A DNA stretch of 24,785 nt, taken from contig CAZEZQ010000002.1 of assembly GCA_964516245.1 (NCBI GenBank), positions 1,678 through 26,462 on the forward strand, read 5' to 3'. A program made the translations under genes and the position numbers. Shown here piece by piece: positions 5,407 to 16,709 of this stretch. Positions within the stretch are counted from its first letter, which is position 1. Every line of letters begins with the position of its first letter. The notes below the pieces were generated by a model. The model saw only the letters and a list, made by a program, of their open reading frames with translations. It did no database searches and was not told where the DNA came from. The stretch is from an uncultured bacterium (GTDB lineage Bacteria > Hinthialibacterota > Hinthialibacteria > Hinthialibacterales > Hinthialibacteraceae).

Positions 5407-8400
5407 ATGATGAAAACAATACGCCAAATCTTTAAGATCTATGAGGATGAAGGCTATAAAGTTGCCTTGTTCTCAATTACTGGAACCCTGTTGTTTGCCG
5501 GCGTAGCAATTGGAAATGTTGCTGCCGATTCTCTTTTTATTGCTCGAGTTGGTGCTTCCCACTACCCCACCATCTATATGATTCTGCCCTTTGTCATGTT
5601 GGCGGTGACTCCGTTGATTGCTTTTATAACAAAAAAATTTGGTGTATACCGCCTTCAATTGATTATGCTTGCTTCCTTGATTGTCTTCGGACTCTTGATC
5701 CGGGGGATTTTGGTTTTGCCTTTTGGAAACGAATATAACCTGCTGTATTTGTACTATGCGATCAAACTGTATGCCAACGTCTGGTTTATTGTTTCGTTTA
5801 CAGCTTTTTGGAATTTTGCGGATGCGTATTTCGATATAATTAGTGCAAAACGGCTGTTTGCTGTATTGAGCGGCGCCAGTTCACTGGGCACGATGTTGGG
5901 GAGTTCTTTGGTGTTACTAGCCACTCAGATGAATATAAATTCCAGTGAACTGTTTTCCATTTGGTCATTTCTGGCGGTTCTCAATATCATTCCTGTTGTG
6001 AAAATTCGATATCATTTTCGCCAAACCGAAGAAGAGATCGATCAAACTCTGACACCCATAAAACAATGGCGTGAATTTTTTAACACCCAATTGGGATCAA
6101 ATTATGTCCGGTTGTTGATGTTGATCGCATTTTTTATTATGTTTATCTCACATTTTTGTGAATTTCAATATATGGTCATATTTGACGATTGGAGTGATGA
6201 TGTCTCTTCACTAGCTGGATTGTTTGGAAATCTATATTTTTCGGTCAGCATATTTAACGCCTTGGTTACTTTTTTTGTTTACAATCGGCTGGTGATCTGG
6301 CTTGGTGTGCGTAATGTTGCCCTGGTTCAGCCTTCCGTGTATCTGTTGACTTTTTTGTTTTTTGTAATTTTCATCGATTCTACTTATTATTTATTTGGAG
6401 TTGCTGTTTTCGCCTTTTTTACCTATCAAGGGGTGCAAGCAGCGGTTGAATACAACAACTGGAATTTGGTTTTGAACGCATTGCCGCAAAATCAAAAATA
6501 TTCCATCCGTACATTTATTGAAGGAATGATCGATCCACTTGGAGGCGCTTTGGCAGGAGGAACTCTGCTCATTTTAGACCGGCATTTTGAATTCCCTTCG
6601 ATTCATGTAGCATTGATCAGTCTTGGTTTGGCTGCAATCTATTTAATTCTTATTTTGTTTCTTCGTCCTTTGTATTTGAAATCAATGATCCACAACTTGC
6701 GGATGGAGTGGTTAGACTTCTTTCAATCGGATCAAAATGTTTTGGGGAAACTTTCCCCACAGGTGTTACACAATCTTACACGCGCTCCTCTCACGAAAGA
6801 TACAGTCAAAACTGTTTGTTCGATTCTATGGTTGAACAACCGCCGTTTGTCAGTCGATACAATGTTTCAATATTTGGAACATAAGCCGCCTTCTGAATGG
6901 CAGCCGGTTCGGGAATTTGTTGAAAAACGAAATTTGATGCAAGATGAAGACGTATCATTTTCTATAAAAAATAAAGTGTTGGGGTATTCCAAACAGTTTC
7001 GAAATACGATCCTCAATCAGTTGCATTGGCATCAAATATTCCCCCTGTTTGATCGTGCTTCAGACGATACGTTTTTCGCCCACACAACTCATTTGTGGAA
7101 ACAAGGGGATCTGAGAGATATAAAAAAAATAGTGAGCAACTCTTTAGAAAAACTTGAGGGGACTGATGAAGACAAACAGTGGGCCCTTTCTGTGATTCAA
7201 CAAACGAACCATCAACCGTTTTGCAAAACGGTTGTTCGTTATTTGAATGATCCCAATTCTCAAGTGCGGCAAGCCGCTCTAAATTGTTTGTGTCAATTAA
7301 CCGGACCCGGCGCCTCTGCATTGATTCCTTACTTAATAGAAAATTTACACCAAGGTTCAAGCGAACAAAATGTTCAAATCCTTATTGCTCTTAGAAAGAT
7401 AGGGGATTCAAATTGCCTTGCTCCATTGCTGCAAAAAGCAGAATCTTTTTCACCAAATGAATTGCGACAGATTTCTCAATTGCTCATTGAGATTGGAACT
7501 CGAAGCCTCCCTACCTGTGTAGAAGTGGTTCAAAATCCTGAATATCCTTATGCAGGCCGTTCATTGGCGGCGAGAACCATCTCAAAGATCGCGCTGCCCC
7601 AATTGCAATCCATGTGCAAAGAATTGCTTTATCGTGAAATTGAAGCGGGCTACAAGAGTCTTTATTTTCAACATCAAATCCAATACCATGCGCATCACTC
7701 TTCCGGCTTACGTGTGCTGGCAAAATATTATAAAGACCGATATAACAGTTCTTTCGAATTTATTATTAATGTGTTAGCTCTCGCCGGCCAGTTGCCAAAT
7801 TATGAATCTCTTATCGCGGCTCTGCGTTCCAATAGCCCCAAGATGAAAGGCAATGCGATTGAAACTTTGGAACAGGCAGTGAGTCAGTCGATATTCAAAA
7901 AAATTCTGCCGGTGTTTGATGGACGGTCTGGAAGCCAGCAGATCGAATTTTTTCAAAAGCATTTTTCTGCAGAAGTGTGGTCGATTCCTCAAATTGTCGA
8001 ACGGGCACAGAATAGCCGAATCGATTTAGAACGGGCGGCTGCCATTCAAGCCTATTGGGATATGAATCAAAAAATTTCCATAAATCAACTTCAAAGGGGG
8101 GTCAACAAAGTTCAAGAAGGGAATTCTCATGAGAAAAGATATCTTCAAACAAATCACTGGATATCGAAAAAAACTATATTGACTCTGATGGAACAAAACA
8201 ATTCAGGAATAAGCCAAGACTCTCCTATCGAAATTATCGATGTGTGTATACGTTCGATAGTATTTTCCCACTTGGCTATTAACGATCTCATTCTACTGCT
8301 GCATCATGTTTCTACAATTGAATTGAATGAAGGTGAGAAATTATCAGGGTTTGATCCCCAAAATCCTTGTGTTCATGTAGTCAAAAGAGGACTTATGTAT

Positions 8401-8628
8401 TCTCTAGATAATGAAGAGGATCAACGTCACGAAGGCGAGTCGATTGGGGAATCTTGTTTGGTGGATACTCATCCGATGGTTTCAGACTTTGTTGCAAAAA
8501 CACCGGCACGGCTCTATAAATTTCAAAAAGCGGACATACTTCAGCAGGCGAATCGGAATTCCCATCTTGCACGTATGCTGCTTGAAGCAAAAATCGCAGG
8601 AATTTTCTCTAATGGAAAAACAACATAA
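5407..8628 (+). CDS. Large multidomain membrane protein: N-terminal TLC/NTT-family (ATP:ADP antiporter-like, MFS-clan) transporter domain, then HEAT (PBS-lyase-type) repeats and a C-terminal cyclic-nucleotide-binding (CAP-effector) domain
   Basis: 1073 aa. The N-terminal ~440 aa are polytopic and similar to TLC-family motifs (DSLFIARVGASHYPTIYMILP...; FWNFADAYFDIISAKRLFAVLSGASSLG vs the Rickettsia Tlc '[28 protein letters not shown]'). The middle has HEAT-like repeats (LNDPNSQVRQAALNCLCQL..., NSPKMKGNAIETLEQ). The C-terminus 'LNEGEKLSGFDPQNPCVHVVKRGLMY...EGESIGESCL...ARLYKF' resembles a cNMP-binding beta-roll. Confidence 0.8.
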   Translation: MMKTIRQIFKIYEDEGYKVALFSITGTLLFAGVAIGNVAADSLFIARVGASHYPTIYMILPFVMLAVTPLIAFITKKFGVYRLQLIMLASLIVFGLLIRGILVLPFGNEYNLLYLYYAIKLYANVWFIVSFTAFWNFADAYFDIISAKRLFAVLSGASSLGTMLGSSLVLLATQMNINSSELFSIWSFLAVLNIIPVVKIRYHFRQTEEEIDQTLTPIKQWREFFNTQLGSNYVRLLMLIAFFIMFISHFCEFQYMVIFDDWSDDVSSLAGLFGNLYFSVSIFNALVTFFVYNRLVIWLGVRNVALVQPSVYLLTFLFFVIFIDSTYYLFGVAVFAFFTYQGVQAAVEYNNWNLVLNALPQNQKYSIRTFIEGMIDPLGGALAGGTLLILDRHFEFPSIHVALISLGLAAIYLILILFLRPLYLKSMIHNLRMEWLDFFQSDQNVLGKLSPQVLHNLTRAPLTKDTVKTVCSILWLNNRRLSVDTMFQYLEHKPPSEWQPVREFVEKRNLMQDEDVSFSIKNKVLGYSKQFRNTILNQLHWHQIFPLFDRASDDTFFAHTTHLWKQGDLRDIKKIVSNSLEKLEGTDEDKQWALSVIQQTNHQPFCKTVVRYLNDPNSQVRQAALNCLCQLTGPGASALIPYLIENLHQGSSEQNVQILIALRKIGDSNCLAPLLQKAESFSPNELRQISQLLIEIGTRSLPTCVEVVQNPEYPYAGRSLAARTISKIALPQLQSMCKELLYREIEAGYKSLYFQHQIQYHAHHSSGLRVLAKYYKDRYNSSFEFIINVLALAGQLPNYESLIAALRSNSPKMKGNAIETLEQAVSQSIFKKILPVFDGRSGSQQIEFFQKHFSAEVWSIPQIVERAQNSRIDLERAAAIQAYWDMNQKISINQLQRGVNKVQEGNSHEKRYLQTNHWISKKTILTLMEQNNSGISQDSPIEIIDVCIRSIVFSHLAINDLILLLHHVSTIELNEGEKLSGFDPQNPCVHVVKRGLMYSLDNEEDQRHEGESIGESCLVDTHPMVSDFVAKTPARLYKFQKADILQQANRNSHLARMLLEAKIAGIFSNGKTT

Positions 8629-10894
8629 AAGAAGCCTATCATTGCTTTCACTTTCTATGCTTTTTTTACTTCCCATTTTTTTTGTTGGGGTTTTCATCTT
8701 AAGTCTGCAAACCGGCCAGCGTATTTATCGGATGATTGAGAAAGGATTTGACCGGAAATTAAACGCGATTAGCACATCCGTCAGCCATTTTATTGATGGA
8801 CACGTAATGGTAAATGATATTTTCACTTCATACAACATCACTGGACTCACATTCGATACCCACCGAAAGCATTTTTGGGGGATTGACCAAAAATCGGACC
8901 GTCTTTGCATGATTCATCCAGAGCATGGTGGGGTGGAGCATGTTATTCCCGGTCAACATGGGCTGATTGACTTGGATTATCATTCTCCATCCAAAACTCT
9001 GTTTGGAGTAAAAGCATCCGGTGAAATTTGGGCTGCCAGTTCTTCTAATTTTAAGAAGATGACCTATATCGCTTCCACTGATCTTGAATGCCGGGGCATT
9101 GCCGTTGATCCAAATCAAGAGCGGATGTATCTCATTGGTGAAAAATTGGCAGCTTACAATTTTTCTCAAGAAAAGTTGTATATTATAGACGCCCGCTCAT
9201 TTTCTCACTGCACCGGCTTGGCATACAATTCAACAGAAAATTTTCTGTATACATTTGATAACAAGAATAAACGTTTGTTGAAACTTGACCCTTGCCAAGG
9301 GACCATTCAAACCGAAACAGAGATTGCCTACATTAAAAAAACTTCTCTGGATTTGGAATTCAACAAATCTTTGGATGAGCGACAATTTAAAGAAGCCTTG
9401 TATTATGACCGTATTCGCAAGACTGGAGATGCAGAATTACGCGATCGTAGTTGGAAGTATTTAAACATCCTTACGAAACAGATATATCATCAAATTCAAA
9501 ATCGGGAAACTCAAATAACGCAATTGAATGGGATTGCCTGCAATGGCTTGGCATTCGGACCTGATTCTCAAACATTGTATAGCGCTGCCAATCAGTTAAT
9601 TCAAATTGATCCCGAAGATAGAGCAATCTCACCTGTTGGGTGGGCACCGAACTTTCGCAGCCATACGAGCAGTTCTTATTTGAGCTACGTACTGCCCATG
9701 AGACGAATTAAACAGAAATTGGATATCACTTATCTTTATACATTTATCCGGCCAGAGAATGAATCGATTGACTCAATCGCTTATGTGTTGGATGCGAATG
9801 TAGATGACAACCATTCTATGATTGGCGATCGAGATTCATTTCCCTCCGGCGCGGGACAGGACATCTATGGAACTGTCCAAGTTGGGGGGCTAAAACAAAC
9901 CCAACCCATTTATTGGGAACAGTGGGGATGGATCAAAACCGCGTATGCCCCCATTTACGATTCATCCAACGAAGTACGCGGAGTTATGGGAACGGATATC
10001 AACGTGTCTGTCATTAATTCAAAAACAAGAAACGCCACGATACGAACCGTTGTTATTGGTTTTACAGCTTTTGTCTTATCGTGCTTTTTGGTGTACATCG
10101 TGTGTTTGGCTATAATTCGTCCAATTCAACATCTTCGCGAAAAAATGTTTATTGTGGCCTCAGGTCAATATGGAGAAGAAGCCCATGTTCAAGGTTCGCG
10201 GGAACTACGGCAAATGGCGGAAGCCTTTAATCAAATGAGCCGCTCGCTACACACCTTTTTTGAAAACCAATCTCAATCCCTTCAAACATTGCAAGAGCGA
10301 ATTGCTACAATGCGCTTGCGCCATAGACTTACCCGCGCGATTGTGCATCGCGTTGAAAGTGATTGCTATTCTATTCAAATCTATCAAGATTGTACCGGCC
10401 AACAATCAAACCTATCGGGATGCATCCAGCACGAGAATCATCTCTTGCTGTGGCTTGGGAACCAAATGGATTCTCCAGAAGGGCGTGAAATGCTTAACCA
10501 TCAAATTTCGACCTTCTGCCATCATATACTATCTCTGCCAACCCTCCCTAAGGAAAGATTGGAGATATCTCTGCCTTATTGGTTTAAGTCTGGGGTCACA
10601 GCCTTTCTTTGGATAGAGAATAATAGCGGATCATTTTGGATACATACAAAGGAAACTCTTTCTTGTATCTTACTGGATAGTAAGGAAGAGTGGAACAAAT
10701 TGATTCAGTTAAACAACCGTGATTCGATTCTTTCCAGTAAGGAATGGGTGTTTGGATATGAACAAAATATGAAATGGCTATTAAACCAGCCATGGTTTCA
10801 AGTGGATTCCCATCAAAACAGTAGGCAAGTAAAAAAACAATTGGAAGAAAGACCCCCGGCGCCGCCTATTGTTTATTTGGAGAAGAAGCCATGA
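8612..10894 (+). CDS. Membrane-anchored sensor protein: N-terminal TM, extracytoplasmic NHL/YWTD-like beta-propeller region and Cache-like domain, second TM, HAMP domain, C-terminal ~230-aa domain of unrecognised type
   Basis: The ORF track starts at 8411, but that would overlap the previous gene by 217 nt. ATG 8612 (MEKQHKRSLSLLSLSMLFLLPIFFVGVFIL, a TM/signal) is in the same frame and overlaps the upstream stop by only 17 nt. Cache signature 'TAYAPIYDSSNEVRGVMGTDINVSVI'. TM 'TVVIGFTAFVLSCFLVYIVCLAII'. HAMP 'RPIQHLREKMFIVASGQYGEEAHVQGSRELRQMAEAFNQMSRSL'. No kinase, GGDEF/EAL, MCP or cyclase motifs are recognisable after HAMP. Confidence 0.7.
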   Translation: MEKQHKRSLSLLSLSMLFLLPIFFVGVFILSLQTGQRIYRMIEKGFDRKLNAISTSVSHFIDGHVMVNDIFTSYNITGLTFDTHRKHFWGIDQKSDRLCMIHPEHGGVEHVIPGQHGLIDLDYHSPSKTLFGVKASGEIWAASSSNFKKMTYIASTDLECRGIAVDPNQERMYLIGEKLAAYNFSQEKLYIIDARSFSHCTGLAYNSTENFLYTFDNKNKRLLKLDPCQGTIQTETEIAYIKKTSLDLEFNKSLDERQFKEALYYDRIRKTGDAELRDRSWKYLNILTKQIYHQIQNRETQITQLNGIACNGLAFGPDSQTLYSAANQLIQIDPEDRAISPVGWAPNFRSHTSSSYLSYVLPMRRIKQKLDITYLYTFIRPENESIDSIAYVLDANVDDNHSMIGDRDSFPSGAGQDIYGTVQVGGLKQTQPIYWEQWGWIKTAYAPIYDSSNEVRGVMGTDINVSVINSKTRNATIRTVVIGFTAFVLSCFLVYIVCLAIIRPIQHLREKMFIVASGQYGEEAHVQGSRELRQMAEAFNQMSRSLHTFFENQSQSLQTLQERIATMRLRHRLTRAIVHRVESDCYSIQIYQDCTGQQSNLSGCIQHENHLLLWLGNQMDSPEGREMLNHQISTFCHHILSLPTLPKERLEISLPYWFKSGVTAFLWIENNSGSFWIHTKETLSCILLDSKEEWNKLIQLNNRDSILSSKEWVFGYEQNMKWLLNQPWFQVDSHQNSRQVKKQLEERPPAPPIVYLEKKP

Positions 10895-11289
10895 TGGACA
10901 CGATGGATAATTTTTTTGTTTTAAAACAAATTCAGCCTTTCGACCGGCTGCACGATCTCGAATTGTATATATTGGCTTCTGCAACTGACCGAGTTGAATA
11001 TACTCCCAATTTGCTGATCGCTGCCAAAGACAATTTTTTGCACCATTTGTATGTTGTGTTGGAGGGTGAATTGATACGAAGCGACAAACATTCACTCCCA
11101 TCCATTGTTGGATTGGGATCACTCCTTTACGATTGGCCGTTGAAATATGACCTTCTTGCGTCGGCCAGTGGAGCTGTATGTCTTAAAATCGGGAAGTCTC
11201 ATTTCATTACCTTGATTTATGAATGCCCCCATTTTACGACTGCACTTTTGCAGCATGCTGGTGAAGAAACCTATTACAATCAGGAGTAG
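10891..11289 (+). CDS. Stand-alone cyclic-nucleotide-binding (CAP effector-like) domain protein
   Basis: 132 aa. The ATGA start/stop overlap with the upstream sensor gene suggests translational coupling. The sequence 'FDRLHDLELYILASATDRVEYTPNLLIAAKDNFLHHLYVVLEGEL...GLGSLLYDWPLKYDLLASASGAVCLKIGKSHFITLI' follows the cNMP-binding domain pattern (F..L....L..L...........G..I...GD....LYVVL.G.......G..ALL...R.A...A...). Confidence 0.6.
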   Translation: MMDTMDNFFVLKQIQPFDRLHDLELYILASATDRVEYTPNLLIAAKDNFLHHLYVVLEGELIRSDKHSLPSIVGLGSLLYDWPLKYDLLASASGAVCLKIGKSHFITLIYECPHFTTALLQHAGEETYYNQE

Positions 11290-11299
11290 AGCTGATTTA

Positions 11300-12685
11300 A
11301 TGCGTCTCCAAATTCAAATTATTCTCTTGTTTGTTCCTATTTTTTTGGCCATGATTGTAACAACGGGAATCAGTCAATATTACACCGAGCGTGATGAACT
11401 CCGGTGGGGAGCCAAAGAGGAAATTATGGCATTTGCGATTTCAATCGCAGAATTTGTTGATCCAGCTTTGTTCTCAGAAAATATTCACTCCTCTACTTCA
11501 TCTACCTCACTTTCGAAGTTCAAGGCTCCCCTTCAACAAATTTTTTCTCATGGTCTGATTCGACATTTAGCATTTTATCCCAAAAATTCCAACGTTTCCT
11601 GTTTTGAGCTGGGTGAAGATCCAGTTGTTCCAATTAACTCGTTTTTATCCGACTATCGTGGGAAAATTCAGCAAGATATCGATTCTAACAAACATTCCAA
11701 TCACACCATAGTAAGTGATTTTCATACAGCAAATTCACCCAATTTTCCAGATACTCTCTATGCCATAGCCCCAGTTACTGATGGAGTAGGAAATCTATTG
11801 GGCATCGTGGCACTGGAAAAAGATATTTCATATATCAGTCAAGAACTGTTTCATATTATGGAACTTATGATTGTAGATGGAATTGTATTGATATGTTTGG
11901 GAATTTTGGTATTGGTTCTTTTGTCCAATCTCATTGACCGTTCTATTCGAAGGCTTACTACAACCTTTTCTAATTCAACTCCTGAAGGTGAAATGACATA
12001 TATCGAATCAATGCCGATTCGTGAATTTCATGAATTAGGCCAAGCGTATAATATAATGTCTGATGTTTTGGAAGAGCAAAAAAAGCGCAAAACCGAAACA
12101 AACTTCATGATTTCTCCGTATTTATCTTCTGAGTATGAGTATACTAAATATTTTCAAGAATATTGGAAACCAATCCACATTACTTATCATCCTTTCAGAA
12201 TTGCAGGATGCATGATAGGTTTTCCAAAAGATCATTTTTTTACAATCATTCAAACTAAAAGCGTGTCGCGCTGTATCGCCGGCCAGCTCGACTGGCATAC
12301 CAGCGATTCCCTCAATGCCCTGATGAATACCTCCAGCCTGAATACTTTTTTACATTCTTATTTGAAAGAAAATGCAATTCCAGATGTTTATTCTTACCTA
12401 ATAGATATTACACAAGTAAAGCAATTTCAAGGTGTTGAAATAGGATATCCGATTGAAACTTCCAAAAAATATTCTATGGAACCTGATTCACCCCCCTTCT
12501 TGAAAGAATCGTTTTTGCAAATAGATTCGGAACCTTATTTTTTTCACACATTTTCAGCGGAATATACTGAAATATTTAAAATGTTTCTCCAACATGAACT
12601 TAATATGAAATCGAAATTGGAGATTTCTACTTTGTGTGATGCTTTTTCAGAGGAGATTGAAGGTTCACTTGTTATTCTGCAGTAG
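11300..12685 (+). CDS. Second membrane sensor: TM - extracytoplasmic Cache-like domain - TM - HAMP-like domain - C-terminal ~230-aa domain of unrecognised type
   Basis: The ORF track starts at 11219, inside the previous gene. ATG 11300 (MRLQIQIILLFVPIFLAMIVTTG) has an AGGAG at 11283-11287 and begins with a TM. Cache-like 'LYAIAPVTDGVGNLLGIVALEKDISYI'. Second TM 'IVDGIVLICLGILVLVLLSNLI'. HAMP-like 'DRSIRRLTTTFSNSTPEGEMTYIESMPIREFHELGQAYNIMSDVLEEQ'. The C-terminal region matches no domain I recognise and is not similar to the C-terminus of the first sensor. Confidence 0.65.
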   Translation: MRLQIQIILLFVPIFLAMIVTTGISQYYTERDELRWGAKEEIMAFAISIAEFVDPALFSENIHSSTSSTSLSKFKAPLQQIFSHGLIRHLAFYPKNSNVSCFELGEDPVVPINSFLSDYRGKIQQDIDSNKHSNHTIVSDFHTANSPNFPDTLYAIAPVTDGVGNLLGIVALEKDISYISQELFHIMELMIVDGIVLICLGILVLVLLSNLIDRSIRRLTTTFSNSTPEGEMTYIESMPIREFHELGQAYNIMSDVLEEQKKRKTETNFMISPYLSSEYEYTKYFQEYWKPIHITYHPFRIAGCMIGFPKDHFFTIIQTKSVSRCIAGQLDWHTSDSLNALMNTSSLNTFLHSYLKENAIPDVYSYLIDITQVKQFQGVEIGYPIETSKKYSMEPDSPPFLKESFLQIDSEPYFFHTFSAEYTEIFKMFLQHELNMKSKLEISTLCDAFSEEIEGSLVILQ

Positions 12686-12742
12686 TGAGTATAAAATATT
12701 TTCTTTCCCATTCCCCCCATTGAAATGGGGGAGGTTAAGAGG

Positions 12743-12898
12743 CAATGTCATTAACTTAAGAAAAACTTGGGGAGTGTCATCGGGAGGGCGAATCTCCTGA
12801 TGAGCCGGTTTCTTCCAATACTTTCGATTCACCAGCCAAGGCTCGGCGTGAGCCTCGCCCTCCCGAAACTTGCCCACACGCTTAAGTTAATGACATTG
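12743..12898. mobile_element. Second copy of the TIR-flanked ~150-bp element: 18-bp perfect terminal inverted repeats CAATGTCATTAACTTAAG (12743-12760) / CTTAAGTTAATGACATTG (12881-12898), with the conserved core in the opposite orientation to the 561-690 copy
   Basis: Seen directly. The TIR sequence is shared with the 561-690 element. Core segments are shared with the reverse complement of 590-650: 'TCTCCTGATGAGCCG', 'GGCTCGGC', 'GAGCCTCGCCCTCC'. In this copy GGGAGGGCGA (12783-12792) can also pair with TCGCCCTCCC (12855-12864). A C6/G5 palindrome lies just outside at 12714-12731. Confidence 0.5.
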
Positions 12899-13235: not shown

Positions 13236-14345
13236 ATGAATCAAGAGAATCACAAAGATTATTCAAACAACACATCGGAAGAATTTCACGATGCAAGTTC
13301 AGAAGGACAATCAGAGTCTAAGAATAAAAATTCAGGTAAAAAAAAGATCGGAAAACATTCTCAATCATCCTGGTGGGCCAAGACACGACTCTATCTGGAG
13401 TTATTCCTTTTCCTTATGGTTCTAATAATTATCGTGTTTTGGAATCGCATCTTCATTGTTATCCATTCGGGAGAATTGGGCGTTTTTTACAGAACGTTTT
13501 ATCAAGGAACAGTGTTGGACAAACCTCCACGAGGTGAAGGATTGAACATAATCTTTCCATGGAATCGCATATACATTTATAATATTCGTGAACAACAAGT
13601 CACGCATCTGTTTCATGTTCTTACACGGGAAGGATTGAATGTATCTATTGAAATATCAATACGTTACCACCCAAAACGTGACGGCTTTCATTTAAACTAT
13701 TTGCATAAAGAATTTGGACCTAATTACTTAGATGTCGTTATTATCCCTGAAGTCCAATCCGCATTGCGGTTCATCATCGGAAAGTATGAACCCCAGGAAC
13801 TTTATCAAGCCGATTATGGTTTGTTGGATGCAGCCCTGAGTGAATCTTTGTTACAACTCACTGAATCTTATGTGGAGCTGGTGGATTTGCTGGTGATGAA
13901 AATCGAGTTGCCGCCTTTGGTGAAGAATGCGATCGAAGAAAAGTTGATGGAAGAACACAATGCAGAAAAATATGCCTATCTATTGATACAAGCCCAACAA
14001 GAAGCGAAACGGAAAGCGATATTGGCACAAGGGATTCGAGATTTTCAAGATATTGTGGCAGAGGGAATATCAAATGAACTGCTTCGTTGGCGTGGGATTG
14101 AAGCCACCTTGGAACTTGCCCGCTCACCCAACTCCAAAATTGTCGTGATAGGAGGGGCGGATGGCCTTCCACTAATTTTGAATACCGACACTGCGAGTCT
14201 ATCGGGAAAAAACGTGATGAATGCTTCAAACATCAATAACGCGACTTCATCATATTATGGATCCGATCCCGGATTTAGTCCGGGGTCGTCGGCCTCGTTT
14301 TACGAACCAACTTCCTCAATTTTAAAGACTTCACCAACACAGTAA
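13236..14345 (+). CDS. SPFH/band-7 (prohibitin/HflC-like) family membrane protein
   Basis: 369 aa. An N-terminal low-complexity cytoplasmic tail is followed by one TM (LYLELFLFLMVLIIIVFW) and an SPFH domain (GELGVFYRTFYQGT...LTREGLNVSIEISIRYHP...VIIPEVQSALRFIIGKYEPQELYQ). There is a coiled-coil region and a Ser-rich C-terminal tail. Good RBS (GAGGAAGGGA) upstream. Confidence 0.85.
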   Translation: MNQENHKDYSNNTSEEFHDASSEGQSESKNKNSGKKKIGKHSQSSWWAKTRLYLELFLFLMVLIIIVFWNRIFIVIHSGELGVFYRTFYQGTVLDKPPRGEGLNIIFPWNRIYIYNIREQQVTHLFHVLTREGLNVSIEISIRYHPKRDGFHLNYLHKEFGPNYLDVVIIPEVQSALRFIIGKYEPQELYQADYGLLDAALSESLLQLTESYVELVDLLVMKIELPPLVKNAIEEKLMEEHNAEKYAYLLIQAQQEAKRKAILAQGIRDFQDIVAEGISNELLRWRGIEATLELARSPNSKIVVIGGADGLPLILNTDTASLSGKNVMNASNINNATSSYYGSDPGFSPGSSASFYEPTSSILKTSPTQ

Positions 14346-15850
14346 TGTTGTGGAAAACACTCTTGTTTGCTTTTAGCGAAATTCTAAAAGCATACAAACA
14401 CGAAGGGAAAACGGTTATGAAAGATTCTTTGGTGGAGTGTATGAATTTGTTTTTTCATTTGTGTATTCTTTTGTGCCTGTATTTATTCATACCGGCAATG
14501 GATTGCCTTGGACAAGCTTCACAAGACAATATCACTTTGCGTGTTTGCGCTTATGAAGGATATACAGAACCTTTTGTCGATGATTTTGCCAAACGAATTC
14601 AAAAACAATTCAATGTGAATGTTGATTTTGAAATCACCATAGCTCCTAATCCAGACGTAATGTTTTATAGGGCATTTGATAGAAAAGCGGATTTGATCAC
14701 GCCTACCCACAATCTATACAAAAGCAAGGTCTGGCCATTTATAGAGAATAGAGTCGTTCACCCAATCAATCTTAGCCAAATTGAAAATTATAAACATGTG
14801 CTGCCCGTGTTTCAAAAAAATTCTTATGTAACTCAAAATGATAATGTGTATGGAACCCCACTTGCGGCAGGATATTATGCTTTGGCTTACAACGCAGACA
14901 AACTAAATGAGCCCCCCACGAGTTGGGATGTACTATGGAATAGTGATTTTAAAAATCAATATTCGATTTCAGAAGATTATTTTGATTGCAATATTTATAT
15001 TACAGCCTTATCGATGGGAGTACCCTATGAAAATCTCTATAATCCAGGCGCCATTTTTCAGGAAATTCCACTCCACCGGCTTCGTGGACGGCTCAATCAA
15101 TTGGCGAGCAATGCATTTTCATTCTGGGAAAGCACACCCAATGTGGAAGAGATGAAAGAATTATCACTGGTGACTACATGGGGATACGCAGTGGTCCAAG
15201 CCAATAAGCAGGGAATGAACTGGAAAATGGCGTCTCCAAAAGAAGGTACTACAGCCTGGTTTGACCACTGGTCTATCACTCATGCGGTCGAAGCCGATTC
15301 TTTAAAATATCAAATATGTATGGAATGGTTGAATTACGCACTATCCAAAAAAGTGCAAGAGCAAGCCGTTCGACTGTGGGGCAACACACCCGTTACGACA
15401 AATGTATTGGATTTATTCAATGAGGAGGAAATTGACACGTACAAGATTGCGAACAATGAATACTGGTCGCAAATTTCGTTTTGGGAAGTGATGGATGCCA
15501 ATACCATTCGAGTGGGGCAAGCTTTGTGGCGTTATGCGATGGCTCAAAAGACATCTCAAGATCGAATGGAAGAATATTTTCAAGATGTACGGCAAACAAT
15601 TGAAAGCCAAGTCATGCCGCAACGATCCAAACATTTAGGGCAACTTGATTTTTCCCGCAACGGTGAAAACGGACAACCAACTGGTTTGGAAGCGAATCAA
15701 GCGGAATTTTCAGCACAAATTGCCGACGATCTTTTGCACCGTATGCGTGTAATGGCCATTAAACGACGCACAACTATGAACGAACTCTTGGAAGAAGCAA
15801 TATTCGATTACTTGAAAAAGAATAATGAATTGCCTGCCAGTCGGCGCTAG
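14345..15850 (+). CDS. Extracellular solute-binding protein (PotD/PotF-like, family-1 ABC substrate-binding protein) with an unusual ~90-aa C-terminal extension
   Basis: The PotD-like core shows 'ITLRVCAYEGYTEPFVDDFAKRIQKQFNVNVDFEI...DLITPTHN...'. The N-terminus has a hydrophobic segment (MNLFFHLCILLCLYLFIPAMDC), so the true start may be ATG 14417 or 14441 rather than 14345 (TAATG overlap with the upstream stop). The C-terminal tail 'DDLLHRMRVMAIKRRTTMNELLEEAIFDYLKKNN' resembles a ribbon-helix-helix motif. Confidence 0.65.
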   Translation: MLWKTLLFAFSEILKAYKHEGKTVMKDSLVECMNLFFHLCILLCLYLFIPAMDCLGQASQDNITLRVCAYEGYTEPFVDDFAKRIQKQFNVNVDFEITIAPNPDVMFYRAFDRKADLITPTHNLYKSKVWPFIENRVVHPINLSQIENYKHVLPVFQKNSYVTQNDNVYGTPLAAGYYALAYNADKLNEPPTSWDVLWNSDFKNQYSISEDYFDCNIYITALSMGVPYENLYNPGAIFQEIPLHRLRGRLNQLASNAFSFWESTPNVEEMKELSLVTTWGYAVVQANKQGMNWKMASPKEGTTAWFDHWSITHAVEADSLKYQICMEWLNYALSKKVQEQAVRLWGNTPVTTNVLDLFNEEEIDTYKIANNEYWSQISFWEVMDANTIRVGQALWRYAMAQKTSQDRMEEYFQDVRQTIESQVMPQRSKHLGQLDFSRNGENGQPTGLEANQAEFSAQIADDLLHRMRVMAIKRRTTMNELLEEAIFDYLKKNNELPASRR

Positions 15851-15866: not shown

Positions 15867-16709
15867 TTACAGTTGGCCATGCAAAATTGTAAGATTGGGT
15901 TTTGGATGTAATGGTTTTGACCAAGATAGCATAGAAATCAGTTCTTGAAGATGGTGCGTGGATAGCACACCGGCGTTCAAGAACAACAATGACTTCCATC
16001 CCCTTTTTTGGGCTTGCTGTATGATTTGACGATGTACGCCAACCGGATCATCCAAAGGAAATGTGGCGCTTCTTGGTAACGCCTGGTAATGGAGACTTGG
16101 ACGCGTGGAATCATAAACCATCGATTCGTCACCCCATGGTGGATCACCAAAGATGAGATCCGGTTCATAGGTTTCTGGAAGCGAGCGAAACAAATCACTC
16201 TCAACAATTTGAATGTCAACCTTATGCAAGTTCACATTCGTTTGGGCTAAAACAATGGCAGCTGAATCAATTTCTACTGATACAATTTGAACCTGATCTT
16301 TGAGGTCTTTCTTCAATGAGATTGCCAAAGCGCCACAGCCCAATCCCACTTCAAGCACTTGAAACGATCTTTTATCATAGGGTGATTGTGAATGGATGTA
16401 CTCTATGATGGCATCAATCATATAACTGGTTTCTGGGTCGGTGATGTATGCCCGGCGGTCAATAAGAAATTCATTACCTCGAAATTTCAATTTGCCTATG
16501 ATATAAGCGAGAGGATCTCCCATGAGACGGCGTTTGATAGCTCGCCGCAGCTTTTCTGAATCGTTTCCCATGGTTTGCCAAAGAATTTTCATTTCACTCA
16601 TAAGAAGATTCATATCGAAATCAACAAATTGATGAAAATCGTTTTGGACTTGCTGAAGTTGCTCTTTTAAGAAAACTTCTATATCCATTATATATCCCAT
16701 TCGTATCAA
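15867..16709 (-). CDS. Class I SAM-dependent methyltransferase related to HemK/PrmC (N5-glutamine/N6-adenine type, DPPW motif)
   Basis: 280 aa. It has 'PLAYIIGKLKFRGNEFLIDRRAYITDPETS' (HemK-like 'PxxYIxGxxxFxGxxFxVxxxVLIPRPETE'), SAM-binding 'VLEVGLGCGALAISL', and 'DLIFGDPPW' in place of (N/D)PP(Y/F). It is convergent with the solute-binding-protein gene, with a 16-nt gap. Confidence 0.7.
   Translation of the reverse strand: MIRMGYIMDIEVFLKEQLQQVQNDFHQFVDFDMNLLMSEMKILWQTMGNDSEKLRRAIKRRLMGDPLAYIIGKLKFRGNEFLIDRRAYITDPETSYMIDAIIEYIHSQSPYDKRSFQVLEVGLGCGALAISLKKDLKDQVQIVSVEIDSAAIVLAQTNVNLHKVDIQIVESDLFRSLPETYEPDLIFGDPPWGDESMVYDSTRPSLHYQALPRSATFPLDDPVGVHRQIIQQAQKRGWKSLLFLNAGVLSTHHLQELISMLSWSKPLHPKPNLTILHGQL

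Follow-up and report, generated by a model that had tools for sequence, protein, structure and literature searches.

A conserved four-gene cassette that sets an NTT-HEAT-cNBD protein beside two HAMP sensors with candidate pseudophosphatase ends

The cassette and its conservation

A stretch of 24,785 nucleotides (24.8 kb; hereafter the window) from an uncultured bacterium of the Hinthialibacteraceae (assembly GCA_964516245.1, contig CAZEZQ010000002.1, positions 1,678 to 26,462) carries four consecutive plus-strand genes, here called G1 to G4 and together the cassette. They encode a transporter-like membrane protein with HEAT repeats and a cyclic-nucleotide-binding-like domain (G1), two membrane-bound HAMP sensors (G2 and G4) and a small cytoplasmic protein (G3) (Table 1). 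An earlier reading of the sequence by itself, the original prediction, had proposed that these genes are chained by start/stop overlaps and form one operon-like functional unit, and both the open reading frames (ORFs) and their junctions bear this out. The ATG of G2 lies 17 nt within the 3′ end of G1, and the start of G3 shares the sequence ATGA with the stop of G2 (10891/10894). The G4 ATG follows the TAG of G3 (11287-11289) by 10 nt, rather than the 11 nt first reported, and is preceded by AGGAG. A mechanical ORF list also offers longer frames for G2 and G4, beginning at 8411 and 11219, which we do not regard as the genes. The starts at 8612 and 11300 yield N-terminal transmembrane (TM) helices that align with those of orthologues, and a public protein collection holds products of exactly 1073, 760, 132 and 461 aa; these starts are preferred for both reasons.

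Table 1. Coordinates of the cassette genes and of recurrent neighbours in the window
Feature	Position	Strand	Description
G1	5407..8628	+	1073 aa; NTT/MFS-like multi-TM domain (aa 1-430), HEAT repeats (Pfam, aa 587-652), degenerate cNMP-binding-like domain (aa ~938-1060)
G2	8612..10894	+	760 aa; TM1 11-29, propeller in Cache-like domain ~70-475, TM2 484-502, HAMP 500-547, PP2C-like ~595-760
G2 C-terminus	10394..10891	+	modelled PP2C/RsbU-type fold without metal-binding aspartates
G3	10891..11289	+	132 aa; small cytoplasmic cNMP-binding-domain homologue without phosphate-binding-cassette Glu/Arg
G4	11300..12685	+	461 aa; TM1 7-25, periplasmic PDC/single-Cache-like domain ~30-176, TM2 189-207, HAMP-like linker ~208-262, probable degenerate PP2C-like domain ~290-461
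SET-domain protein	4378-4815	-	Pfam
AdoMet_dc-type decarboxylase	4812-5228	-	Pfam
MTS-type S-adenosylmethionine (SAM) methyltransferase	15867..16709	-	Pfam MTS, 37.9 bits

The cassette is not peculiar to this bacterium. A scan with the conserved Cache motif of G2, run on one genome for each of 185,579 species, returned 55 loci. Gene order was then read with hidden Markov models (HMMs) of the four proteins, and neighbouring genes were counted over 60 loci drawn from genomes and metagenome contigs. Wherever a locus was long enough, G1, G2, G3 and G4 stood in this order on one strand, in 55 of the 55 genome loci as well as on metagenome contigs. Contigs carrying G2 homologues (loci L001, L003, L004, L005 and L007), whose GC content spans 40-69%, have all four genes in this order too, and 4-nt overlaps at the G2/G3 and G3/G4 junctions recur in related loci. 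Because the same order and the same tight junctions recur in every genome locus, the cassette is more than a chance arrangement. Carriers include Sphingomonadales, Phenylobacterium, Azospirillaceae, Acidobacteriota, Opitutaceae/Verrucomicrobia, Leptospiraceae, Spirochaetaceae, Longimicrobiales, Schekmanbacteria and a low-GC uncultured bacterium that is nearest to the window. The original prediction had proposed such a neighbourhood survey and had named an order confined to one genome as an outcome that would speak against it; the order is instead kept far beyond the source genome.

One variant departs from this plan. A 4.7 Mb assembly (GCA_964656755.1; L002:10001-12960) has only G2 and G3, followed by a TIR_2 protein (89 bits) in the place of G4, and no G1 upstream.

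Two periplasmic sensors and their cytoplasmic ends

G2 and G4 each have two hydrophobic helices flanking a periplasmic part. Both show the layout of Cache/PDC-HAMP receptors, in which two TM helices surround a periplasmic PDC/Cache fold that is followed by HAMP. In Pfam, G2 matches HAMP at 32.9 bits, with weak dCache and DUF6923 (propeller-type) matches. When searched against the PDB, the G2 family profile found HAMP-containing receptors and, at E ~1e-8, beta-propellers of the YWTD/LRP and YncE kinds; on the strength of these propeller matches we regard the propeller as real. It is inserted in the periplasmic Cache-like domain, and the propeller, Cache and HAMP parts that had been read from the sequence at the outset are all borne out. 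NCBIfam matches to the window proteins were confined to the sensor-TM-HAMP parts of two kinds of protein, histidine kinases and the HAMP-PP2C protein SiaA. Close relatives were few in word-indexed searches, which returned only 12 homologues of G2. The same kind of search with G4 found only the query itself, and a four-sequence profile added two more sequences; the window G4 has no Pfam match.

What lies beyond HAMP in G2 had been described as an output domain of no recognisable kind. The C-terminus indeed has no Pfam or NCBIfam match, and so none to the SpoIIE/PP2C profiles. Its predicted structure tells more. An AlphaFold2 model of residues 560-760, built on an alignment of 11 homologues, reached a predicted local distance difference test score (pLDDT) of 66 overall and ~80 in the core, and shows the central beta-sandwich flanked by helices that defines the PPM fold. 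Foldseek placed the RsbU domain of Rv1364c first (E=4e-4), followed by RsbX, RssB and SpoIIE. Fold-comparison figures for the same model were 10.1 for the RsbU domain of Rv1364c, 9.6 for SpoIIE, 9.2 for Stp1, 8.3 for the RssB pseudophosphatase domain, 7.6 for SiaA and 7.5 for RsbX. The catalytic residues of this fold are missing: at the PPM motif places the window G2 has SGC, LGN and GYE instead of metal-binding aspartates. A single Gly and a single Trp are the only residues that are invariant, or nearly so, across 21 G2 C-termini, and no acidic column stands at the PPM motif positions. It is fairly secure that G2 ends in a PP2C-type pseudophosphatase domain. The output of G2 can be recognised after all, and as a degenerate PP2C, one of the known families whose detection had been named in advance as counting against an unrecognised output.

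The C-terminus of G4 probably belongs to the same class. Over 56 orthologues, the predicted order of strands and helices fits an RsbU-type PP2C skeleton without the ligands, and remnants of the motifs survive as G-x-F, i-G-R/Q, L-L-H-T and a final G. In these 56 sequences G, F, G, A, A and G make up the conserved columns, and none of them is an acidic ligand. Comparison of the G2 and G4 C-termini by hhalign gave E=0.0022 over 86 collinear columns, which suggests that the two are weakly related. A search of G4 and G2 with the SpoIIE profile (hmmsearch) was not significant. By these sequence features, the G4 C-terminus is a probable PP2C-like pseudophosphatase domain, and the outputs of the sensors would be a known fold that sequence profiles miss.

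The transporter-like protein, the small protein and the neighbouring genes

G1 joins a multi-TM domain, with ~10-11 hydrophobic segments within aa 1-420, to HEAT repeats that come after it (HEAT_2 at 36.6 bits and HEAT at 27.7 bits in Pfam). The window protein has no Pfam TLC match. By BLASTP, its N-terminal domain is 35% identical to the NTT-HEAT protein of Sphingomonas wittichii (E=4e-71) and 22% identical to that of Chlamydia trachomatis (E=1e-21), both included in the data of Major et al. 2017 (PMC5381601). The match at E=4e-71 to a published NTT-HEAT protein supports an NTT-like 12-TM domain. The cNMP_binding match of G1 is below threshold, at 18 bits against a Pfam cut-off of 27.5, and the Arg of the phosphate-binding cassette is replaced (PMVSD in the alignment). 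Orthologues have matches to cNMP_binding of 34-44 bits, to HEAT_2, to MFS_1 of 33 bits and to TLC of 25.7 bits. In Alphaproteobacteria, HMMs and alignment find G1 without the domain for cyclic-nucleotide binding (cNBD).

By sequence, G1 is a member of the published NTT-HEAT-cNBD clade. The parts of Major et al. that bear on it describe NTT-HEAT proteins and NTT-HEAT-cNBD fusions as a monophyletic, widespread and functionally uncharacterised clade (PMC5381601). The fusions share the three-part architecture of G1, and their TM domains align with it; that paper also notes separate cNBD genes adjoining NTT-HEAT genes. The original prediction was right that this architecture has no established function, and the architecture itself has a precedent, having been described in 2017 (PMC5381601). 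The passages of the same paper on HEAT and cyclic nucleotides mention no pair of HAMP sensors, no G3 family distinct from the cNBD of G1, and no partner-switch, cyclase, SET or decarboxylase neighbourhood.

G3 is related to the same domain. The window protein has no Pfam match; orthologues match cNMP_binding over positions 2-86 at E ~3e-3 to 5e-3, below the gathering score, and the HMMs of G3 and of the G1 cNBD find each other reciprocally. These matches and those of the G1 orthologues uphold the cNMP-like assignments first made for both proteins. In 60 sequences from all lineages, however, G3 lacks the Glu and the Arg of the phosphate-binding cassette, with the consensus vFG..SLLF....d..A at this place. 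Its most conserved stretch is K-x-H-F-F-T-I-x-x-E-C-P, near the C-terminus. A HMMER search of 1.84 billion representatives found 154 relatives, 57 of them at E <= 1e-10, nearly all of which stand alone at 124-145 aa. The few fusions are informative. In four proteins (P0104, P0118, P0136 and P0160), G3 replaces the PP2C-like domain of a G2-type Cache-TM-HAMP sensor, and two others (P0055 and P0060, 300-309 aa) are GAF-G3 fusions, so that a cytoplasmic GAF sensor, and not only a Cache-HAMP one, can drive the domain. Because of these fusions, we read G3 as a domain that serves sensor modules as output or partner, and not as a usual free second-messenger receptor; in the cassette it is probably an adaptor or output partner of G2.

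Genes next to the cassette are of several recurrent kinds, counted in single-pass searches from Pfam-verified seeds. A HAMP-SpoIIE protein (147-174 bits) is the fifth gene in 38-39 loci, in Alphaproteobacteria and some Opitutaceae, and these co-encoded SpoIIE domains retain the GGDLYD, GDVSGKG, TDG and DD motifs. A STAS gene and an RsbW-like HATPase_c_2 gene follow G4 in 37 loci. Alphaproteobacteria and some Opitutaceae have all three, which make a complete partner switch (L012:10451-11302 and 36 others; L012:3636-5243). In seven loci, from Acidobacteriota-type contigs, L007 and spirochaetes, a HAMP-class III (adenylate/guanylate) cyclase takes the place of the fifth gene.

Enzymes form a second group. 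A SET-domain protein lies near the cassette in 36 of the 60 loci and an ornithine/arginine-decarboxylase-like pyridoxal phosphate (PLP) enzyme in 38 of the 60. The window and its nearest relative, L001, have an AdoMet_dc-type (pyruvoyl) decarboxylase in place of the PLP enzyme, together with SET and MTS proteins; in the window the SET and decarboxylase pair (4378..5228) is divergent from the cassette. In Opitutaceae, a PLP decarboxylase fused to a methyltransferase lies 16 nt upstream of G1. MTS homologues occur near the cassette in L001, L025, L040, L056, L058 and L061, and the MTS methyltransferase is tentatively a recurrent neighbour of non-alphaproteobacterial loci. Examples of these SET, decarboxylase and methyltransferase genes are found at L012:11346-13017, L056:2029-3984 and L058:1807-3774.

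Other features of these loci stand apart from the enzymes. A Gcw_chp outer-membrane beta-barrel (BBP2 in L007) is encoded in 26 of the 60 loci, in several phyla (for example L001:3214-3999, L003:5905-6627, L004:13949-14758 and L034:1578-2516); no Gcw_chp-type barrel was found in the window. Other window genes (1582-2202, 2750-4393 and 13236-15850) encode a pseudopilin of type II secretion (N_methyl/T2SSG), a protein of the ABC ATPase type and a Band_7/SPFH protein with a solute-binding protein (SBP_bac_6/8) after it; the ABC, Band_7 and SBP trio is syntenic with L001. In the 550-nt gap 3′ of G4 lies a near-perfect palindrome of 155 nt (12743-12897), with a folding energy of -89.9 kcal/mol over 211 nt and a z of -6.2 against shuffles. 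One 17-nt arm, AATGTCATTAACTTAAG, occurs again at 561-577 and, with two mismatches, at 673-689 (range 561-689). The palindrome has no Rfam family match, and its sequence suggests a small repeated element of the miniature inverted-repeat transposable element (MITE) or repetitive extragenic palindrome (REP) kind. A G-rich hairpin just before it (12714-12731) may be the operon terminator. A hammerhead-like reading of CTGATGAG...GAAAC (12790-12870) was rejected, as the pairing topology does not fit and Rfam gives no match.

A proposed multi-input co-receptor module and its alternatives

We give a probability of roughly one half to the reading that the cassette is a multi-input co-receptor module, which would feed a partner switch or a cyclase and in which G2 and G4 would act as pseudophosphatases. 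Both proteins would be periplasmic sensors, G2 through its propeller and Cache domain and G4 through its PDC/Cache domain, each joined by HAMP to a cytoplasmic PP2C-type (RsbU/SpoIIE-like) domain without catalytic metal ligands; they would serve as pseudophosphatase co-receptors and not as enzymes. Binding of an external ligand would alter the conformation of HAMP and its linker, and this change would in turn shift the contacts that G3 and the dead PP2C domains make with their partners. We infer the direction of this signal and the contacts between the proteins from the features above. Candidate partners are G1 and an active HAMP-PP2C protein (with STAS and RsbW-like proteins) or a HAMP-cyclase. 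G1 may be a regulated transporter target or a scaffold that acts via its HEAT repeats, and G3 may be the cytoplasmic partner or output piece of G2, its nucleotide-binding residues having been lost. In most other genomes an active enzyme adjoins the cassette; in the window genome it would be encoded elsewhere.

Several observations weigh against this reading. The G2 model is of only moderate confidence (pLDDT 66), a PDB profile search with the G2 C-terminus was negative, and hhalign of this C-terminus against SpoIIE domains, although in the right register, was not significant (E=0.063). The G4 C-terminus fared similarly against true SpoIIE (E=0.059, in the right register, not significant), and its own model, built on a three-sequence alignment, falls to pLDDT ~30 after residue 257 and is unusable. 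In PDB searches by phmmer and by profile with G2, G4 and their C-termini, the output ends gave only chance-level matches (CutA and a GAF fragment). Loss of the canonical Asp residues is also not proof that all activity is lost. Moreover, alphaproteobacterial G2 lacks most of the PP2C-like domain, so that this domain is not essential to the cassette; the propeller is absent from these proteins as well. Pfam and neighbourhood searches found no PP2C, STAS, RsbW or cyclase gene within the window. Membership in a partner switch, as judged from gene neighbourhoods, holds in 37-38 of the 60 related loci and is unproven for the window genome. Finally, 46 of the 55 genome loci are alphaproteobacterial (Sphingomonadales, Phenylobacterium, Azospirillaceae and unclassified alphaproteobacterial metagenome-assembled genomes), and because related Alphaproteobacteria dominate, the neighbourhood counts overstate the number of independent events.

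The alternative that survives best starts from the neighbouring enzymes. The decarboxylase, SET protein and SAM methyltransferases might make or modify an amine, a polyamine or a SAM-derived compound (or methylate a protein); G1 would move the compound and the sensors would detect it, in an autocrine or feedback loop. The spread of SET and of the PLP decarboxylase, which resembles ornithine decarboxylase (ODC), over Alphaproteobacteria, Verrucomicrobiota and Schekmanbacteria is consistent with such a metabolic-signalling locus. So are the non-homologous AdoMet_dc decarboxylase with SET beside G1 in the window and L001, the ODC-methyltransferase fusion close upstream of G1 in Opitutaceae and the PotD/PotF-like SBP_bac_6/8 solute-binding protein downstream in the window. 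Yet the cyclase-type loci (Acidobacteriota, spirochaetes, L004, L005 and L007) have none of these enzymes, the counts are again dominated by related Alphaproteobacteria, and the window SET and AdoMet_dc genes lie on the strand opposite to the cassette. We hold this account to be unlikely, and it is compatible with the co-receptor reading rather than exclusive of it. A broader proposal that draws on both strikes us as somewhat less likely again: the cassette would be the sensory core of a previously unrecognised multi-phylum supermodule in which a transporter-like NTT-HEAT protein, two pseudophosphatase co-receptors and a cNBD-derived adaptor control a partner switch or a cyclase, and would either respond to or govern an amine or SAM-derived compound that the decarboxylase, SET and methyltransferase enzymes of the locus produce.

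The original prediction itself supposed that HAMP relays signals to new effector domains and that cyclic nucleotide monophosphate (cNMP) binding by G1 and G3 gates a nucleotide antiporter. Some of the evidence points this way: bona fide cNMP_binding domains of up to 44 bits in G1 orthologues, the HAMP-cyclase that adjoins the cassette in seven loci, the place of the G1 TM domain in the NTT clade, and the failure of Pfam and NCBIfam to find an output domain. A link to cyclic nucleotides in some lineages is accordingly retained from it. Gating in the window is doubtful, since the phosphate-binding Arg is gone from G1 here, both Glu and Arg are missing from G3 in every lineage and the window encodes no cyclase. 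Alphaproteobacterial G1 has no cNBD to be gated by, the output of G2 is a PP2C fold according to its model, and in the parts of Major et al. concerned with these proteins no NTT-HEAT protein is shown to transport anything (PMC5381601). As a whole, the proposal now appears improbable. Least probable of all, G2 and G4 might be active, non-canonical phosphatases or hydrolases with other catalytic residues, acting in RsbU-like manner on a STAS protein encoded elsewhere; no acidic column is conserved at the motif positions in 21 G2 or 56 G4 sequences, the domains share only 11-18% identity with the window sequence, a very low conservation that does not resemble that of a selected active site, and most genomes co-encode an intact HAMP-SpoIIE.

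Known systems offer partial parallels to the proposed co-receptor module. One is the chlamydial pair RsbU (CT588) and CT589/CTL0852, in which, as in G2 and G4, an inner-membrane protein couples a periplasmic Cache-type sensor through HAMP to a cytoplasmic PP2C-like domain (PMC4552016, PMC5177608, PMC13463777). CT589, which is still uncharacterised, lacks the metal-coordinating residues, as do both cassette sensors (PMC4552016, PMC5177608, PMC13463777); it is regarded as a dead RsbU paralogue and has been proposed to bind RsbU or RsbV (PMC5177608). The two chlamydial sensors are also encoded side by side. This likeness is drawn from published descriptions; similarity at the sequence level was not detectable, as PDB profile searches with G2 and G4 gave no chlamydial or RsbU-named entry. 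In the cassette, unlike the chlamydial pair, both sensors are catalytically dead by their motifs, G2 carries an inserted beta-propeller, and the pair is embedded between the NTT-HEAT-cNBD gene and the small cNBD-like gene. The window is not itself a Chlamydiaceae RsbU/CT589 locus: the Sphingomonas protein is a closer match to G1 than the chlamydial protein is, and no sensors adjoin the NTT-HEAT gene of a C. trachomatis-like contig. On that contig (L063:10022-13214, 94% identical to C. trachomatis NTT-HEAT), a 920 aa NTT-HEAT gene has, 20 nt beyond its end, a separate gene for a 136 aa protein, which has a canonical cNMP_binding domain (57 bits) and matches the G3 and G1-cNBD HMMs at ~1e-13. 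By sequence, this pair amounts to G1 split in two, with no sensors beside it.

HAMP-PP2C sensor phosphatases (the RsbU/RsbP type of Bacillus subtilis, SiaA of Pseudomonas aeruginosa and HAMP-PPM of Synechocystis) differ from G2 and G4 in having the catalytic Asp residues; in the cassette loci of other genomes the active enzyme is a separate fifth gene, and it is absent from the window. It is established that PPM domains dimerise via switch helices governed by crossing linkers, which come from HAMP and from other sensor domains, and RssB provides an example of a dead PPM domain that works as an adaptor (PMC12143880). This response regulator uses its C-terminal PP2C pseudophosphatase domain in this way; it is soluble and receiver-domain driven, delivers sigma-S to ClpXP and, unlike the cassette, has no membrane sensor, HAMP or transporter-like partner. 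A Cache-HAMP receptor without an output of its own has been found to act on a co-encoded kinase (bioRxiv 10.64898/2026.05.25.727664). This Cache_heme-HAMP receptor combines periplasmic Cache and HAMP, has no enzymatic output and signals in trans to a linked protein (bioRxiv 10.64898/2026.05.25.727664), much like the short alphaproteobacterial forms of G2 and the role proposed here for G2 and G4. It differs in its PknB-like Ser/Thr kinase partner with helical repeat modules, in its Cache subtype and in having no PP2C-like or cNBD-like parts.

Every part of the cassette belongs to a known family. Their combination appears undescribed: the NTT-HEAT(-cNBD) clade is coupled to a cNBD-derived adaptor and to a pair of HAMP sensors, which in their longer forms have probable pseudophosphatase domains at the end, and the whole is spread over several phyla, usually next to a partner switch or a cyclase. 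No publication that brings these parts together turned up in literature searches. The distribution of NTT-HEAT(-cNBD) proteins is wide, taking in cyanobacteria, Chlamydia and oomycetes, and they have been without a functional context since their description in 2017. One NTT-HEAT subclade is always accompanied by two HAMP sensors and a cNBD-like adaptor, and usually by a complete partner switch or a cyclase. Were the supermodule proposal true, the NTT-HEAT family, with the uncharacterised protein of C. trachomatis among its members, would gain a functional context for the first time. Both the role of NTT-HEAT proteins and that of dead RsbU paralogues such as CT589 become testable in culturable Sphingomonas, Phenylobacterium and Niveispirillum.

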